Shown piece by piece: positions 2,789-23,549 of a stretch of 64,000 nt of DNA (the stretch's first letter is position 1; each line of letters begins with the position of its first letter). Location of the stretch: contig JACOXP010000005.1 in NCBI GenBank assembly GCA_016182295.1, forward strand, positions 4,926 through 68,925, in the 5' to 3' direction. The translations under genes were made by a program, and so were the position numbers. The DNA is from Candidatus Harrisonbacteria bacterium (lineage in GTDB: Bacteria > Patescibacteriota > Minisyncoccia > UBA6257 > WO2-44-18). Under the pieces are notes generated by a model. That model had not been told where the DNA came from. It made no database searches and was given only the letters and a program-made list of their open reading frames with translations.

Positions 2789-3901
2789 ATGGCACTGGCA
2801 ATCTACAGGAAATACCGCCCTAAAAGCTTTGGTGAATTTTTAGGCCAAAGAGAAATTTCGGAAGTTTTGAAAAACGCCGCCCGGCAAAACCGGCTGGCTC
2901 ACGCTTATCTTTTCTGCGGACCCCGCGGCACCGGAAAGACGACCGCCGCCCGCCTTCTCGCCAAGCTTGCTAATTGCCTGACTCGCAAGACCGATTCCAG
3001 TTTTCATCAAAAAGGCGAACCTTGTAATTATTGCGTCCACTGTTCCGATATTGATGCCGGAAAAGCGCTGGATGTCATAGAAATCGACGCCGCTTCCAAC
3101 CGCGGCATTGACGAAATCCGCAACCTCAAAGAAGGCATTCGCCTTTCCCCGGCCGTCCACGATCACAAAGTAGTTATCATTGACGAAACCCACATGCTCA
3201 CCAAGGAAGCGTTCAACGCGCTTTTGAAAACTTTGGAAGAGCCGCCGGCTCACGCGATTTTAGTGCTGGCGACCACCGAATATGAAAAAGTGCCGCCGAC
3301 AATTTCTTCCCGCTGTCAGAGATTCTATTTCCGCAAGCTCCCGGTTGAAGAAATAAAATCAAAATTAAAAAGGATCGCCCTTGCTGAAAAAATACAGGCC
3401 ACTGACGAAGCGCTGGAATTGATTGCTTCGGCAGCCGAAGGAAGTTTACGCGATGCCGAATCTCTCTTTGATCAGATGGCTTCTTTTTCCGGCAGTATAG
3501 ACGCCGAAGCGGTTGAAAAAAATCTCGGCCAGGTGGGCCTGGCAAGGATCGTTACGCTCGCCGGTCACATTTTTGAAAATAATCTTTCCGCCGCGCTTCA
3601 ATATATCGGGAAATTAAACGAGGGCGGCTACAATGTCGTTGATCTCAACAAAGAGCTTATTCACTACTTGCGGCGGGTTATCAGTTTGAAAGTTGATCCA
3701 AATTTGGCGACGCTTTTTGAACGGCAATTTACCGCTAAAGATTTAGACCAATTAAAAAAACACGGCGAACTGGTTGATATGAATAAACATATTAATCTTC
3801 TGCGGTCGCTGATTCGCGCTTACAGCGAGATGCGTTATAGTCCTTTCGCTTCCGTGCCATTGGAAATCGCCATAATTGAAAATCTCCAGAAAAAGGAGTA
3901 A
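2789..3901 (+). CDS. dnaX: DNA polymerase III subunit gamma/tau (short form)
   Basis: 370 aa; YRPKSF..GQ, Walker A GPRGTGKTT, zinc-finger cysteines CNYCVHC, SRC motif. Confidence 0.85.
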   Translation: MALAIYRKYRPKSFGEFLGQREISEVLKNAARQNRLAHAYLFCGPRGTGKTTAARLLAKLANCLTRKTDSSFHQKGEPCNYCVHCSDIDAGKALDVIEIDAASNRGIDEIRNLKEGIRLSPAVHDHKVVIIDETHMLTKEAFNALLKTLEEPPAHAILVLATTEYEKVPPTISSRCQRFYFRKLPVEEIKSKLKRIALAEKIQATDEALELIASAAEGSLRDAESLFDQMASFSGSIDAEAVEKNLGQVGLARIVTLAGHIFENNLSAALQYIGKLNEGGYNVVDLNKELIHYLRRVISLKVDPNLATLFERQFTAKDLDQLKKHGELVDMNKHINLLRSLIRAYSEMRYSPFASVPLEIAIIENLQKKE

Positions 3902-3922
3902 AATGTAGAAAATTCCCAACCT

Positions 3923-3947
3923 TCCGGGATCGTCTAATGGTAGGACG
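3923..3947 (+). pseudogene. 5' fragment (acceptor + D-arm, 25 nt) of a tRNA-Gln gene, identical to the first 25 nt of tRNA-Gln(TTG) at 17766
   Basis: tccgggatcgtctaatggtaggacg is identical to 17766-17790. The matching 3' part lies about 360 nt downstream (4309-4352). Confidence 0.5.
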
Positions 3948-4005
3948 AGTCCCTTGCTAAAATATTAATCTCAACCGCGGCGGTGCAAATTTTAGTGAAT
4001 TGAGC

Positions 4006-4076
4006 TGGGGGATCGTCTAATGGTAGGACGCATGGCTCTGAACCATGAAGTCTAGGTTCGACTCCTGGTCCCCCAG
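4006..4076 (+). tRNA. tRNA-Gln (anticodon CTG)
   Basis: Cloverleaf: acceptor tggggga/tccccca, D-stem gtct/ggac, anticodon stem catgg/ccatg with loop ctCTGaa, T-arm ctagg-ttcgact-cctgg, discriminator g. It is flanked by a 9-bp inverted repeat (3997-4005 / 4076-4084) that extends the acceptor stem to 16 bp. Confidence 0.85.
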
Positions 4077-4308
4077 CTCAATTCATTTATTCAGCGCTAG
4101 GCGCGACGACGAAGACGTAAAACTTTACGCCGAGGAGGAGCAACGACGCGATGGAATAAAATTTGCCCGCCCCTTCGGGTTGTTGGCAAAATGGCGTCTC
4201 GACTCGAGGCTCATCCTCGGAGTAGAGTCTACACCTTCGGATTCGCTCCTTCGCGAGACATCCATTTTGCCTAACAACGCGGCGAGAGCTAATATTTTGG
4301 CAAGGGAC

Positions 4309-4352
4309 CTGCTCTGAACCATGAAATTGGGGTTCGATTCCCTGTCCCGGAA
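4309..4352 (+). pseudogene. 3' fragment of a tRNA-Gln gene (anticodon loop of CTG type + T-arm/acceptor of TTG type)
   Basis: ctgctctgaaccatgaaattggggttcgattccctgtcccggaa. The last 24 nt differ by 1 nt from the 3' end of tRNA-Gln(TTG) at 17766-17836. No 5' partner within 80 nt; the partner is at 3923-3947. Confidence 0.5.
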
Positions 4353-4356
4353 CAGA

Positions 4357-4575
4357 TCAAAACTTAACCGGCAGTTGAAGCGCGAAACCAATGGCTATTA
4401 AAAGCAGACCGAAGAGTCCGAATTTTTGTTCTCTTTTCATCTGCGAGAAAACCTTATCGTCTATTTTGTGCTCGCGCCAAAAACGATAATGGACAGCGAT
4501 TGCCATATAACCAACCAGGAGTTTCCCCAAAGTATCGATAAAGAATCCGATTGAAGCTAGTAGTTCTAAACTCAT
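4357..4575 (-). CDS. Small two-TM membrane protein (hypothetical)
   Basis: 72 aa, two hydrophobic helices; compact spacing before the GT-C genes. Confidence 0.3.
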   Translation of the reverse strand: MSLELLASIGFFIDTLGKLLVGYMAIAVHYRFWREHKIDDKVFSQMKREQKFGLFGLLLIAIGFALQLPVKF

Positions 4576-4609: not shown

Positions 4610-6109
4610 ATGAAGCAAAACCTTCTTTGGGTAATCGCGATTTTTGTTGTTTTTGCTGCTGCTTGGCATTTTGGCAATCCCAATATCGCCGATCCGGACA
4701 GTTTCTTTTACATGGGGCTGGCTTCTTGGCATCGGGAAAGCGGAGTTTTGGCCAACGATTTTCCCTGGATATATCACTCCGTCGTTCGCGAGCTTTCCGC
4801 TTCGCTTTGGTATGGTTTTGGCGTTTTTTTAATCCCGTTTTCTTTATTAAGCATTCCTTTTTGGAGTATCAAAATCGCGGGCGTTCTTTTAACCGCGGCG
4901 GCGCTTTTTTCGATTTACTGGGTGTGTAAAAAATTCGGTTTCCGCTGGCCGGCATTCTGGCCATTCCTGGCTTTTTTTGCCGCCCCCAACTCTCTCTTTC
5001 ATTTTCTAATGGTCAGGCCGCAGACAATTTCGCTGATTTTGGCGCCCTTGTTGTTTTATTTTCTTTTACGTCGGTCGTTTTGGGGCATCGCGCTTACTTC
5101 TTTTGGCATCGTCTGGTTTCATTTTAACTTTGCCTGGCTCCCAGTTTTAATTTTTGCCGTCATTAAATTTTACTCGCTTCTTTTTGAGAAAAAAATTGTT
5201 TTAAAAGAAGGTTTGACTTTGCTGGCCGGTCTGTTGTTGGGTTGGCTTTTGCGGCCGGAACCAATCGCTGCCGCCAAGCTTTTTTATATTCAGGTCTTCC
5301 AGCAGATTTTTGAAAAATCCGGCGGTTTGCCGCTGATCTTTGGCGCGGAAAATTATCCTTTAAGCGCCGAGATTCTTTTCACCAATTTCTTGGTGTTTCT
5401 CGTTCTTTGGGTGGCCGGAACGTTTTTTATAAGCAAAACAGCGATGGAAAAAAGAATGCTGATTTTTTGCGGCTTAACCATTTCTTCCATTTTCTTTTTG
5501 ATTTCCATTATTGTGGCGAGGCGAGCATACGACTTCTGGATCATTTTCGGAGTTATTTTTCTCGCTGCCGTTTTTTCCTTCATCGAAGGCAGACAAGTTC
5601 GGCAAGCGGTAGCCTACGTGTTGGGCGGCATTCTTGTTTTTTTGATTTTATTTTCCGGCGTTAAGACCGGTATCAGTTTGGCTAACCAGGGGCACTCGCC
5701 GACAAATTTGAAAGAAGTTTCCCTTTGGCTGAAGGAGAACAGCCAACCTGGGGAAATCGTTTTTAATCTTCACTGGGCGGATTTTTCACCGCTGTTTTAT
5801 TGGAATCGCCAGAATTATTACACTTTCGGTCTCGATCCGATTTTTGCGTACGCCTATAACCCGTCGCTTTATTGGAAATTTCATTACCTTTCCATCGATC
5901 AAGTGACTAAAAAAACTTGCGGCGCTGAAGCCTGCACCCGGGAGCAATTGGAAGATACTTATGAGGTTTTGGTTCGCGATTTTAACGCTAAGTACGTATT
6001 GCTTACCAAAGATGAAAACCCAGCCGTTGATTTTTGGATTAGCGGAGATGATCGTTTTCAGAAAGTATTCGAGACGGATAACGAGAAAATTTACCTCATC
6101 CAAGAATGA
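4610..6109 (+). CDS. GT-C fold polytopic membrane glycosyltransferase (PMT/ArnT/STT3-like), paralog 1
   Basis: 499 aa, about 12 predicted TM segments followed by a ~130-aa soluble C-terminal domain. First-loop motif ADPDSFFYMGLASW (D-x-D-x-aromatic). Translationally coupled to paralog 2. Confidence 0.5.
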   Translation: MKQNLLWVIAIFVVFAAAWHFGNPNIADPDSFFYMGLASWHRESGVLANDFPWIYHSVVRELSASLWYGFGVFLIPFSLLSIPFWSIKIAGVLLTAAALFSIYWVCKKFGFRWPAFWPFLAFFAAPNSLFHFLMVRPQTISLILAPLLFYFLLRRSFWGIALTSFGIVWFHFNFAWLPVLIFAVIKFYSLLFEKKIVLKEGLTLLAGLLLGWLLRPEPIAAAKLFYIQVFQQIFEKSGGLPLIFGAENYPLSAEILFTNFLVFLVLWVAGTFFISKTAMEKRMLIFCGLTISSIFFLISIIVARRAYDFWIIFGVIFLAAVFSFIEGRQVRQAVAYVLGGILVFLILFSGVKTGISLANQGHSPTNLKEVSLWLKENSQPGEIVFNLHWADFSPLFYWNRQNYYTFGLDPIFAYAYNPSLYWKFHYLSIDQVTKKTCGAEACTREQLEDTYEVLVRDFNAKYVLLTKDENPAVDFWISGDDRFQKVFETDNEKIYLIQE

Positions 6110-17765: not shown

Positions 17766-17836
17766 TCCGGGATCGTCTAATGGTAGGACGTCTCCCTTTG
17801 GAGGAGAAAATCGGGGTTCGAATCCCTGTCCCGGAA
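17766..17836 (+). tRNA. tRNA-Gln (anticodon TTG)
   Basis: Acceptor tccggga/tcccgga, D-stem gtct/ggac, anticodon stem tctcc/ggaga with loop ctTTGga, T-arm cgggg-ttcgaat-ccctg, discriminator a; no encoded CCA. Confidence 0.85.
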
Positions 17837-17879
17837 CATCGAATAAATTGGTATCCTTGAAACAGAAAGGGATTCCTCC

Positions 17880-17895
17880 TCCCTGTCCCGGAACA
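17880..17895 (+). repeat. Direct repeat of the last 16 nt of tRNA-Gln(TTG) (tccctgtcccggaaca), 43 nt downstream of the tRNA
   Basis: Exact 16-nt copy of 17821-17836. The preceding 10 nt also resemble the T-loop region. Confidence 0.6.
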
Positions 17896-17904
17896 AAATA
17901 TAAA

Positions 17905-21773: not shown

Positions 21774-23549
21774 CTACTTCTTTAATAATTCCTTAAATAC
21801 GTGAGCGGGAATTTTAATTTGCGATTTTTCCGCCATTGCTTTAAGTTTTTTCTTGCCTTTTTGCTGTTTTTTCCAAAGCTTCATTTTTCGAGTGCGGTCT
21901 CCGCCGTAAAGATAGCCGGTTACGTCCTTTTTGAGCGCCGGGACGTTTTCGCGAGCAATAATTCGCCCGCCGGCGGTTACTTGAATCGCCTGCATAAATT
22001 GCTGGCGGGGCAAGAGATTTTTCAATGTTTCAGCGGTGAATCGTGCTTCTCGCTCAATGTCTTTTTTGGGCAAAATCCTGGTTAATCCGGGCACCACTTG
22101 CCCAGCCACCACAACTTCTACTTTTGCTAGATCGGCTCGTTCATAACCGGATATTTCGTAATAGAACGAAGCAAAGCCCTGCGAAATTGATTTTAATTTA
22201 TCGTCAAAGTCCCGGATTAGATCGGCCAGCGGCAATTTCGCTCGAACCAACATCTTGTTTTTAAATGTTTCGGTTGTTAAGTCGGAAATTCTAAAAATTT
22301 CTTTAAGTTGCAAAATTCCGCCGAGATATTGAGGTGGTGTGACAATTTCTATTTTCGTAACCGGCTCTTCTACCTGGTTGTATTCGTTGGGAAAATCTTT
22401 TGGGTTAGTAATTAAGACGCCGTCAACTTTGTAAGCCACTGATGGGAAGCTATGAACAGTAGATATTTGGAATTCCTTTTCCAGCCGTTCCGCGGTGATC
22501 TCAAAATGGAGCCTTCCCAGAAATCCACCCTTAAATCCTCTACCCAAAACTTCGCTGGAATCCGCTTCGAAGGTTAGCGCCGAGTCAGTCAATTTTAATT
22601 TTCCAAGCGCCTGTTTGAATTCGTCGTAATTATCGGTCTCTTCCGGATAAAAAGACACGAACACAACTGGTTTTGGTTCCTGATACCCCGGCAAGGCTTT
22701 CTCTTTTGAGTTTTGGAGAATGAGGGTGTCCCCGATTTTTAGCTGGTCTGGGTTTTTAATGCCGGTAGCGATATAGCCGATCATTCCTTCGCCGATTTCT
22801 TGGCAAGTTTTAAAAGCCGGAGCGAAATAACCAATTTCTTTTGCCTTTGCTCTGGCTTCAGTAGCGAGAAAACCGACATCGTCATTAGTTTTAAAACTTC
22901 CGTTGAAAACACGGATAAAAGCGATAATGCCCTTATGTTCGTCGTACAAGGAATCAAAAACAAGCGCGCGGGAATGATTCTTGATCGGTGAACCGTAATT
23001 GAGATTTTTCGGAGGAGGAATTTCGCGAACAATTGTTTCTAAAAGTTCGGGGACTCCATCGCCGGTTTTTCCGGAAACCTTCAATATTTTTTCAGGTTCG
23101 ATGTTTAATAATTCGGCTAAATCGCCGATGCTATTTTCTATTTGCTCGGGAGCGGCGACATCAATTTTATTAACGGCCCCGATAATCTTCAGCCCTGATT
23201 TTTTCGCGGATTCAAAATTCGCGAGCGTTTGCGCTTGAATGCCTTGGGTTGCGTCAACGAGCAGTACCGCGCCTTCAACAGCCGCCAGCGCTCGCGAGAC
23301 CTCGTAGGCAAAATCCGAGTGGCCCGGCGTGTCTATTAAATTTAAAATGTAGTTTTTATATTTCATTCGGACCGGGGCCATTTTAATAGTTATGCCGCGT
23401 TCTCGTTCAAGTTCCAATTGGTCAAGGTATTGCGGTTTCATCAGTCGTTTTTCGACAGTGCCAGTGCTTTCCAAAAGCCGATCGGCGAGAGTCGACTTTC
23501 CATGATCAACGTGGGCAGTTATGACGAAGTTTCTGATATTTGAGTCCAT
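21774..23549 (-). CDS. lepA: Elongation factor 4 (LepA)
   Basis: 591 aa; AHVDHGKST, DTPGHSDF and a LepA-type C-terminal domain. Confidence 0.9.
   Translation of the reverse strand: MDSNIRNFVITAHVDHGKSTLADRLLESTGTVEKRLMKPQYLDQLELERERGITIKMAPVRMKYKNYILNLIDTPGHSDFAYEVSRALAAVEGAVLLVDATQGIQAQTLANFESAKKSGLKIIGAVNKIDVAAPEQIENSIGDLAELLNIEPEKILKVSGKTGDGVPELLETIVREIPPPKNLNYGSPIKNHSRALVFDSLYDEHKGIIAFIRVFNGSFKTNDDVGFLATEARAKAKEIGYFAPAFKTCQEIGEGMIGYIATGIKNPDQLKIGDTLILQNSKEKALPGYQEPKPVVFVSFYPEETDNYDEFKQALGKLKLTDSALTFEADSSEVLGRGFKGGFLGRLHFEITAERLEKEFQISTVHSFPSVAYKVDGVLITNPKDFPNEYNQVEEPVTKIEIVTPPQYLGGILQLKEIFRISDLTTETFKNKMLVRAKLPLADLIRDFDDKLKSISQGFASFYYEISGYERADLAKVEVVVAGQVVPGLTRILPKKDIEREARFTAETLKNLLPRQQFMQAIQVTAGGRIIARENVPALKKDVTGYLYGGDRTRKMKLWKKQQKGKKKLKAMAEKSQIKIPAHVFKELLKK

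Follow-up and report, generated by a model that had tools for sequence, protein, structure and literature searches.

A tRNA-Gln gene nested within a broken tRNA-Gln gene in Candidatus Harrisonbacteria: a putative self-complementing cassette

How does a complete tRNA-Gln gene come to lie between the two halves of another tRNA-Gln gene, and what has become of the gene that was broken? The question arises in a 64,000-nt stretch of contig JACOXP010000005.1 of a Candidatus Harrisonbacteria bacterium (the window, whose numbering is used throughout), a member of the Candidate Phyla Radiation (CPR, Patescibacteria). Just downstream of dnaX (2789-3901), an insert of a few hundred nucleotides separates the 5' and 3' pieces of a tRNA-Gln gene and carries a tRNA-Gln(CUG) of its own. 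The best reading of this insert is that it is a nuclease-less member, or an architectural analogue, of a group of self-complementing cassettes that invade tRNA-Gln genes.

A tRNA-Gln gene directly 3' of dnaX is common in related CPR genomes. Loci of relatives are designated L###; the closer relatives came via a protein index, the DnaX-seeded contig scans being dominated by the conserved AAA+ motif and yielding few of them. The DnaX of the window is 100% identical to a protein of a Candidatus Harrisonbacteria metagenome-assembled genome, and the next relatives reach only about 70-71%. In L161, the upstream genes (ScpA, DUF4015, NUDIX, and dnaX) and two large downstream open reading frames (ORFs) are the same as in the window, and an intact tRNA-Gln(UUG) stands between dnaX and these ORFs, constituting an empty site. 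L169 and L170 are empty sites as well, with an intact tRNA-Gln(UUG) right after dnaX. The L161 gene reads UCCGGGAUCGUCUAAUGGUAGGACG CCUGC CUUUGGA GCAGG AAAU CGGGGUUCGAUCCCCUG UCCCGGA AC, and its alignment with the window presents GGACG/CCTGC as uninterrupted host sequence at the insertion point. The window has the first 25 bases of L161, then 360 nt, then CCUGC; the insert therefore lies exactly between G26 and C27 (standard tRNA numbering skips position 17, so that nt 1-26 comprise 25 bases). An insert-containing allele (the window) and insert-free alleles (L161, L169, and L170) of this conserved dnaX-linked target both exist among relatives. The broken gene, whose orphan pieces were detected with an nhmmer profile built from 16 tRNA-Gln genes, is laid out as follows.

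3876-3904, + strand: promoter-like site TTGAAA-17 nt-TAAAAT, 10/12 in a consensus scan, overlapping the end of dnaX
3923-3947, + strand: outer tRNA-Gln 5' piece (acceptor 5' strand, D-arm, and G26; tRNA nt 1-26); model positions 1-33 match 3923-3955, E 1.5e-4
3948-4307, + strand: insert (cassette), 360 nt between tRNA positions 26 and 27, bounds from the L161 alignment
4308-4353, + strand: outer tRNA-Gln 3' piece; model positions 16-72 match 4298-4353, E 3.8e-7
4308-4312, within the 3' piece: CCTGC, the native 5' anticodon-stem strand
4311-4325, within the 3' piece: 15-nt patch (CUG loop plus CCAUG), identical to 4035-4049 of the inner tRNA
4328-4344, within the 3' piece: T-arm
4345-4351, within the 3' piece: acceptor 3' strand, pairing with 3923-3929 to form the outer acceptor stem
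4352, within the 3' piece: discriminator A

Alignment and gene order establish the outer halves as orthologs of the intact tRNA-Gln(UUG) in syntenic relatives. Joined, they are 92% identical (65/71) to the L161 gene, 90% to L164, and 89% to L170. The initial annotation of the locus, made from the letters alone, had noticed the identity of 3923-3947 with the 25 nt that open the tRNA-Gln(UUG) gene at 17766; all 25 bases are indeed identical to 17766-17790, and the same holds for L161 and L170. Its match between 4329-4352 and the last 24 nt of that gene also stands, one base differing from 17813-17836, but the 3' piece begins at 4308 rather than near 4329. The ancestral gene had been proposed to be a second tRNA-Gln(CUG). 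The orthologs are of the UUG type, however, and the native CCUGC persists at 4308-4312, making a UUG ancestor that was overwritten locally more parsimonious than a second CUG isoacceptor.

The overwriting is visible downstream of the insert. After CCUGC, the window has UCUGAACCAUGAAAU where L161 has CUUUGGAGCAGGAAAU, a difference of four substitutions and one deletion, and all of these changes shift the sequence toward that of the inner tRNA; 4311-4325 equals 4035-4049 over 15 nt. As the initial annotation observed, a CUG-type loop is thereby joined to a UUG-type T-arm and acceptor: the patch is of the inner type, the T-arm and acceptor of the native type. CCUGC, the 5' strand of the anticodon stem, now stands opposite CCAUG, with which it does not pair. 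After in-silico excision at three boundaries, ARAGORN returned nothing or else 'tRNA-??? (ctga)', whose loop has 8 nt and whose stem has two mismatched pairs, whereas the L161 control was called normally in the same test. The flanking halves do not form a gene, as had been recognized, and the joined halves yield no valid tRNA. Since the outer gene cannot form an anticodon stem, it is a dead shell. The patch may have arisen by gene conversion from the inner copy or as a co-conversion tract from a donor allele.

The inner tRNA-Gln(CUG) is the predicted functional gene of the locus. ARAGORN and Rfam agree with the first description of it as complete and canonical: all four stems are paired, the anticodon loop has 7 nt, no non-canonical pair is flagged, and the gene has U1-A72, G73, and a CUG anticodon. 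Its discriminator is G4076, and the following C4077 is the last gene base in the ARAGORN count. The inner tRNA was not copied from the outer gene. The two tRNAs of the locus are 82% identical overall and differ in the acceptor, anticodon, and T stems. The nearest sequences in the set compared are instead the cassette-borne inner tRNAs of two other CPR loci, L175 (61/72, 85%) and L172 (81%), whereas native dnaX-linked genes reach 71-79%. Around the inner gene, the insert is composed of nested complementary strands.

3949-3978, + strand: closing helix 5' strand, 19 + 4 + 4 bp, pairing with 4279-4308 in the minimum free energy (MFE) fold
3979-3994, + strand: second helix 5' strand, 15 bp with one bulge, pairing with 4157-4171 (inverted repeat I6)
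3995-4005, + strand: leader, pairing with the trailer and lengthening the inner acceptor stem
4006-4077, + strand: inner tRNA-Gln(CUG), intact (ARAGORN); Rfam RF00005, 62.7 bits over 4006-4076 (gathering score 29)
4078-4086, + strand: trailer, complement of the leader; 4077 also pairs with the leader
4087-4156, + strand: side hairpin A, 3' arm, weakly paired, GC 0.54 (MFE fold)
4157-4171, + strand: second helix 3' strand (MFE fold)
4172-4278, + strand: side hairpin B, a 22-bp interrupted stem (4179-4201/4254-4278) bearing two small hairpins (inverted repeat I7)
4279-4308, + strand: closing helix 3' strand, its final base 4308 already being C27 of the outer tRNA

The whole 431 nt of the locus fold at -195.4 kcal/mol, compared with -136.6 +/- 5.5 for dinucleotide shuffles (z = -10.7). 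With the side hairpins set aside, the inner tRNA tops an interrupted helix of about 57 bp whose pairs are almost all Watson-Crick. The initial annotation correctly placed an inverted repeat at the borders of the insert and understated its size: the repeat (I2, 3949-3967/4290-4308) is not 9 of 10 bp but 19 bp at 95%, the single non-Watson-Crick position being a G-U. A pattern search for it matches only its two positions in the window, where 0.05 matches are expected by chance. Likewise, the repeat that lengthens the inner acceptor stem is real and larger than described, a perfect 17-nt inverted repeat (3996-4012/4069-4085). The duplex of leader and trailer adds 10-12 bp to the inner acceptor stem, the longest such extension among 53 tRNAs surveyed in the window and in the loci of relatives. 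Extensions of at least 8 bp occur in 3 of these 53, all of them nested tRNA-Gln genes (the inner tRNAs of the window, L081, and L172). The two UUCG-containing strings reported earlier are both present and fall within side hairpin B. The region 4085-4300, which had been called much more GC-rich than the genome, is only moderately so (0.52 against 0.44 for the window). Side hairpin A has no Rfam match and no detected homolog. The insert contains no ORF with homologs, no Pfam match, and no GIY-YIG remnant; neither of its two spurious ORFs matches Pfam, and a search of 5.8 billion proteins with one of them, of 90 aa across the insert, recovered no homolog.

Four other CPR loci (L081, L140, L172, and L175) repeat this nested design, and three of them have a GIY-YIG nuclease gene directly upstream of the inner tRNA-Gln. 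The shared layout runs from the outer 5' piece through one strand of the closing helix to an inner tRNA-Gln whose leader and trailer pair, and on through the other strand of the helix to the outer 3' piece. In L172, whose DnaX is 68% identical to that of the window, the outer 5' piece TGGGGGATCGTCTAA at 5581-5595 is followed by the closing helix 5' strand CTTGCCCCGCC, a GIY-YIG ORF (PF01541, E 7e-17), an inner tRNA-Gln(UUG) at 5860-5931, the closing helix 3' strand, and the remainder of an outer tRNA-Gln(UUG) at 5987-6041 (E 5e-11). L175 consists of an outer 5' piece (1469-1483), a GIY-YIG ORF, an inner tRNA (1743-1814), and an outer 3' piece (1873-1924), with CUG in both tRNA genes; its 18-bp closing helix includes the AUG start codon of the nuclease. 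The L175 locus is identical in seven further assemblies (L174 and L176-L181) from several datasets. Because the nested unit does not vary across these eight assemblies, it is uninformative on selection. L172 and L175 share the conserved junction GTCTAA/CTTGCCCCGCC in the outer D-loop, and their outer anticodon arm, T-arm, and acceptor still pair perfectly. In both, the nuclease ORF has no stop codon before the tRNA and reads through it.

The other two loci are more decayed. In L140, a GIY-YIG ORF and an inner tRNA-Gln(CUG) lie within a decayed shell whose outer pieces are at 2203 and 2681. L081 has no ORF, and its inner tRNA-Gln lies directly after the D-arm (after nt 26) of a recognizable, decayed outer tRNA-Gln. 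The acceptor stems are nested by type: UCCGGGG within UGCGGGA in L081, UGCGGGA within UGGGGGA in L172, and UGGGGGA within UCCGGGA in the window, a pattern that successive replacement would be predicted to produce. Two observations on the shells stand apart from this comparison. The outer D-loop of L140 (locus 2203-2703) contains two GC-rich hairpins without cargo, CCCCGCCTAAGCGGGG (2221) and TCCCGCTGCGGCGGGA (2237), which resemble the closing helix of the L172 and L175 cassettes, the GIY-YIG ORF and tRNA-Gln(CUG) being inserted further 3'; this doubly modified shell could be a record of successive invasions. In L081, a 9-nt direct repeat, AGTTTATCC (2024-2032 and 2143-2151), flanks the inner unit within the decayed shell and could be the target-site duplication of a secondary insertion or could be due to chance.

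The small GIY-YIG ORFs of L172, L175, and L140 all match Pfam PF01541 (E 1e-16 to 1e-18). Relatives of the L172 ORF comprise 208 protein clusters. Among the 120 of these matches listed, every one (120/120) ends in a tail of the form ..AGSSNGRT..GSNPSPAAL, which is an in-frame translation of tRNA-Gln, about 71 of the UUG type and 45 of the CUG type. Within the same 120, 41 run on into ..FGGVK, which is translated from the closing helix 3' strand, and 7 have at their start ..DRLTCPAKF, translated from the outer 5' piece together with the closing helix 5' strand. These translated ends indicate that a GIY-YIG/tRNA-Gln cassette within the tRNA-Gln D-loop is widespread. They also imply that gene callers systematically mis-annotate such loci, since the called proteins read through the tRNA. 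Beyond this group, the wider family of GIY-YIG proteins of about 80 aa includes 1923 clusters (50% identity, E<=1e-3), and at least 20 of 148 representatives read through a tRNA gene at the N or C terminus. The read-through covers tRNAs beyond tRNA-Gln, typically as ..VVGSIPTRSTK.. and ..VGSNPTLGT.., which suggests that the family is associated with tRNA genes in general. In the viral contigs of IMG/VR, no instance of the junction motif from the GIY-YIG cassettes was found, and a protein-based scan of the same database recovered ordinary tRNA-Gln genes only. A 13-nt exact match to the closing-helix motif CTTGCCCCGCCAG in the window (22002-22014, - strand) lies inside the coding sequence of lepA (EF4) and was judged to be due to chance.

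The locus is probably explained by a cassette with a functional tRNA-Gln that inserted into the native tRNA-Gln, after which the native gene decayed; the insertion would have been initiated by a nuclease, by analogy with homing. Of the origins listed in the initial annotation, an insertion that broke a tRNA-Gln and delivered a replacement is best supported, because empty sites exist, the outer halves are native-like (89-92%), and the inner tRNA is cassette-like (85%); the accompanying label, a small mobile insertion akin to a miniature inverted-repeat transposable element (MITE), is only partly apt. By analogy of architecture, we infer that the window insert is homologous, and not merely analogous, to the GIY-YIG cassettes. 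The proposed route borrows from free-standing homing endonucleases. A GIY-YIG nuclease would make a double-strand break in the intact tRNA-Gln gene, and an allele that bears the cassette would serve as the repair template. The cassette would then escape counter-selection by supplying a replacement tRNA-Gln, not by splicing. The window copy has probably lost, or never had, the nuclease gene and would now be an immobile relic. Its expression can be sketched as well. About 19 nt separate the promoter-like site from the 5' end of the outer tRNA downstream of it, and both hexamers of the site also precede the intact orthologous tRNA-Gln in L169 and L170, so that it is probably the native tRNA-Gln promoter; because the site is kept before the empty-site orthologs, the nested unit is probably transcribed from this old promoter at the end of dnaX. 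The inner tRNA would be freed by RNase P together with an activity that processes tRNA 3' ends, RNase III could plausibly cut the long duplex, and what remains would probably be discarded.

Phage homing systems offer the closest mobile parallel. The SegB protein of phage T4 is a GIY-YIG homing endonuclease encoded in a tRNA gene cluster (PMC2330249; PMC2988022), and free-standing GIY-YIG homing endonucleases are known for the co-conversion of flanks and for hairpin control of endonuclease translation (PMC2988022; PMC2330249). Like the Seg genes of T-even phages, the CPR loci have a small GIY-YIG gene among or in tRNA genes and alleles with and without the insert; the exchange of sequence near the insertion could reflect co-conversion, and the closing helix of L175 resembles an RNA hairpin that buries the endonuclease start. 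Unlike Seg genes, which lie between genes and leave their target unbroken, the cassette lies inside its target tRNA gene with a full replacement copy. Unlike SegB, the putative CPR nucleases consist of little more than a catalytic domain of about 80 aa, and the window copy lacks a nuclease.

Several points weigh against this reading. No nuclease gene was found in the insert or in the 64-kb window, where tblastn with four GIY-YIG ORFs matched only translated tRNA. Searches of the window, about 195 related loci, and the viral contigs of IMG/VR for further copies of the insert, of the kind that the initial annotation had proposed for 3948-4308, revealed none, and no close relative has the same insert (the closest DnaX is 71% identical). 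The link between the window and the GIY-YIG cassettes is architectural only, because the two have no sequence similarity outside the tRNA. Insertion sites vary, being at 26/27 in the window and L081, in the D-loop in L172 and L175, and further 3' in L140, and no target site is duplicated. The putatively site-specific GIY-YIG proteins are small and have no obvious DNA-binding domain beside the catalytic one. The patch beside the insert (4311-4325) is of the inner or donor type, and intragenomic gene conversion explains it as well as co-conversion does. Finally, a pure DNA-level homing model leaves the closing helix of every cassette unexplained.

An alternative is a local rearrangement scar, in which recombination between tandem or nearby tRNA-Gln genes and inverted duplications made by template-switching during replication would have produced the locus with no mobile element, leaving an intact gene between fragments and palindromic spacer DNA. 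Substrates for such events are at hand. A 22-nt perfect direct repeat of the D-arm (3926-3947/4009-4030) and a 38-nt repeat of the 3' parts at 82% (4035-4072/4311-4348) are present, the 15-nt patch shows sequence exchange between copies, the second tRNA-Gln locus of the window also has an orphan 3' fragment (17881-17894), and stems that are nearly all perfect Watson-Crick are expected of young DNA-level palindromes. A recombination scar was among the origins first proposed; it accounts for the 15-nt patch and not for the rest. The inner tRNA is no copy of the outer one (82%) and is nearer to cassette-borne tRNAs of other lineages. Simple unequal crossing-over would yield tandem hybrids rather than nesting, and the nested layout, closing helix, and leader/trailer duplex occur in four other lineages in different contexts with a nuclease gene. 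A scar is accordingly a rather unlikely explanation.

The closing helix juxtaposes the outer halves at every nested locus, which invites the alternative that the insert is a true intron or that the outer gene is a split tRNA. The halves would be joined, or would base-pair as a two-piece tRNA through the closing helix, and the locus would yield two tRNAs; removal might proceed by RNase III, by RNase P/Z at the embedded tRNA, or by another endonuclease together with a ligase. Patescibacteria are unusually rich in tRNA introns (PMC13011429). The joined outer halves of L172 and L175 pass ARAGORN as tRNA-Gln with all stems paired, and where the inner tRNA of L175 departs from the outer one, the pairs have changed in a compensatory manner. 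A bolder model for loci of the L172/L175 type is that the closing helix may let the outer halves rejoin or act as a two-piece tRNA. Against this stand the outer D-loops of L172 and L175, which have no GG after excision, their inner and outer anticodons, which are the same and render the outer copy redundant, and the heavily decayed shells of L081 and L140. For the window, an intron or split tRNA is untenable because the joined product, with its unpaired anticodon stem, is not a tRNA at any boundary tested, and overall the alternative seems improbable.

The intron classes tried individually fare no better. A group I or new type of intron had been suggested initially, along with a search of Rfam intron models by Infernal. 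With permissive filters, cmscan of 3800-4500 at E<=10 returned the inner tRNA and two chance matches to hairpin-type miRNAs, with RF00028 absent. At the Rfam gathering threshold, the whole window gave tRNA only, and at E<=1, 14 related loci (including L172, L140, and L081) gave tRNAs and chance matches only, with no ribozyme signature. The ARAGORN intron search (-i) found the inner tRNA alone. The insert at 26/27 lies outside the 7-nt anticodon loop, its fold is a rod that leaves no space for a group I core, and its removal restores no valid tRNA. Group I introns of Patescibacteria tRNAs interrupt the anticodon loop (33/34 to 36/37, enriched at 35/36), match RF00028, follow a U, have G as their last base, and produce a valid tRNA by self-splicing (PMC13011429). 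The window insert shares their phylum and, as a few-hundred-nt insertion, likewise hides a tRNA gene from standard finders, but it differs in its site, its lack of an Rfam family, its rod-like form, its embedded tRNA, and its lack of a valid product.

An intron of the archaeal type is rejected as well: 3949-3967/4290-4308 is a continuous 19-bp duplex without the 3-nt bulges of a bulge-helix-bulge. The split and multi-intron tRNAs of Nanoarchaeum equitans, Caldivirga, and the Thermoproteales depend on a bulge-helix-bulge and a splicing endonuclease and give a joined, functional tRNA. The resemblance to these archaeal genes lies in complementary sequences beside the halves, as in Nanoarchaeum, that can bring them together, and in non-canonical positions of interruption, which include the junction of the D-arm and anticodon arm; the window locus differs in being bacterial, in having no bulge-helix-bulge, and in its invalid joined product.

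The neighborhood raised other RNA candidates. The signal recognition particle (SRP) RNA gene ffs is often linked to dnaX, and tmRNA has tRNA-like ends. SRP RNA, 6S RNA, RNase P RNA, and tmRNA have no Rfam support here; the SRP domain IV motif was not seen by eye, and the acceptor has no G3-U70. A retron or a guide RNA of a neighboring nuclease is rejected because the downstream ORFs (499 and 513 aa, no Pfam match) are orthologous in L161, which has no insert, so that the insert is not the RNA partner of a neighbor.

A further alternative is a non-autonomous transposon. A MITE, with its transposase elsewhere, would have landed in the tRNA gene by chance or preference and would happen to carry a tRNA; the 19-bp terminal inverted repeats at 95% and the 360-bp length without an ORF suit this idea. 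It is nevertheless unlikely: the flanks (GGACGA and CTGCTC) have no direct repeat as target-site duplication, neither a further copy nor a solo end occurs in the 64 kb (up to 3 mismatches; blastn), the inverted repeats are nested throughout and not terminal alone, and literature searches found no MITE with a complete tRNA gene. A metagenome assembly artefact, in which a chimeric join formed at the repeated tRNA-Gln D-arm, is scarcely credible, for although the window derives from a metagenome-assembled genome and has a 22-nt exact repeat, that repeat is shorter than typical assembly k-mers, the outer halves fit each other and the syntenic ortholog, the nested self-complementarity is beyond any mis-join, and the same architecture occurs in independent assemblies, with the L175-type locus identical in eight.

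A cassette that replaces the gene it breaks also bears comparison with larger elements that target tRNA genes. Tyrosine-integrase elements of this kind span kilobases, encode an integrase, and duplicate only the tRNA part downstream of the crossover as a direct repeat. Prophages and islands that target tRNA genes reportedly carry a copy of the displaced 3' part of the tRNA, as Williams is said to have described in 2002. The window locus resembles them in that a tRNA gene is targeted, the damage is compensated, and orphan tRNA fragments are left. It differs in that a whole independent tRNA gene is nested between the 5' and 3' pieces, with no integrase. A tyrosine-integrase element was accordingly rejected, the insert having no ORF and the arrangement being 5' piece, full gene, and 3' piece rather than an attL/attR direct repeat.

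At the other tRNA-Gln locus of the window, the 3' end of the intact tRNA-Gln(UUG) at 17766-17837 is repeated 43 nt further on (CCCTGTCCCGGAAC, 17881-17894), and a degenerate T-arm-like stretch precedes this fragment (region 17766-17897). The fragment looks like an att-type duplication or a remnant of an older tRNA-Gln and fits the classical pattern of integrative elements. Taken with the split locus, it means that both tRNA-Gln loci of the window carry orphan tRNA-Gln fragments.

Bacterial 23S rRNA intervening sequences (IVS) replace a hairpin loop of the rRNA and leave functional rRNA fragments. The window insert is like an IVS in placing a long near-perfect helix, a plausible RNase III substrate, in a structured RNA gene; it is unlike an IVS in that the gene is a tRNA gene, the insert carries a tRNA, and the host gene is dead. 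Two Saccharibacteria-like loci, L002 (5150-5590) and L086 (4110-4565), have between dnaX and tRNA-Gln an ORF that we take to resemble the four-helix-bundle family of 23S rRNA IVS. This ORF is flanked by long inverted repeats, and L092 and L084 keep the repeats only. L085 and L086 have a GIY-YIG ORF just downstream of tRNA-Gln. In L002, from a Saccharibacteria metagenome-assembled genome, a GC-rich stretch of about 160 nt (5670-5830) lies directly 3' of tRNA-Gln and has no Rfam match at E<=1. Small selfish elements appear to have a hotspot at the junction of dnaX and tRNA-Gln.

The individual parts are all known: nucleases of the homing type, tRNA genes that serve as targets, and ways of making good the damage to a target. 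No account of a tRNA gene nested inside another of its kind, or of GIY-YIG genes associated with tRNA-Gln in CPR, turned up in literature searches, and what appears new is the combination, a whole replacement gene nested in the broken one and accompanied by a closing helix. The window locus alone is a nuclease-less relic whose value lies in exposing the family. More tentatively, at something near an even chance, CPR bacteria harbor a class of selfish cassettes in tRNA-Gln genes whose own tRNA-Gln makes the host dependent on them and most of which encode a minimal GIY-YIG nuclease; within that same tentative proposal, repeated invasions would leave Russian-doll shells like those of L140 and L081, and the window would be a nuclease-less member.

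Elements in essential genes usually spare their host by splicing, as introns and inteins do, or by restoring a few displaced bases, as tRNA-targeting islands do. The element described here appears to bring a whole replacement gene, leaving the host dependent on the tRNA of the invader and the old gene as a fossil shell. The conserved closing helices raise the question of a non-ribozyme route for removing tRNA insertions in bacteria, and if the outer halves rejoin or function in two pieces at L172 and L175, these loci would represent a new kind of bacterial tRNA intron or split tRNA. If the wider pattern is true, it would add a new strategy to those of homing elements and would help to explain the frequent adjacency of tRNA-Gln and small GIY-YIG genes in CPR. 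It would also mean that tRNA finders and gene callers mis-annotate such loci, with ORFs read through tRNAs and orphan halves overlooked, and that acceptor-stem variants nested across lineages constitute a natural record of successive tRNA gene replacements.

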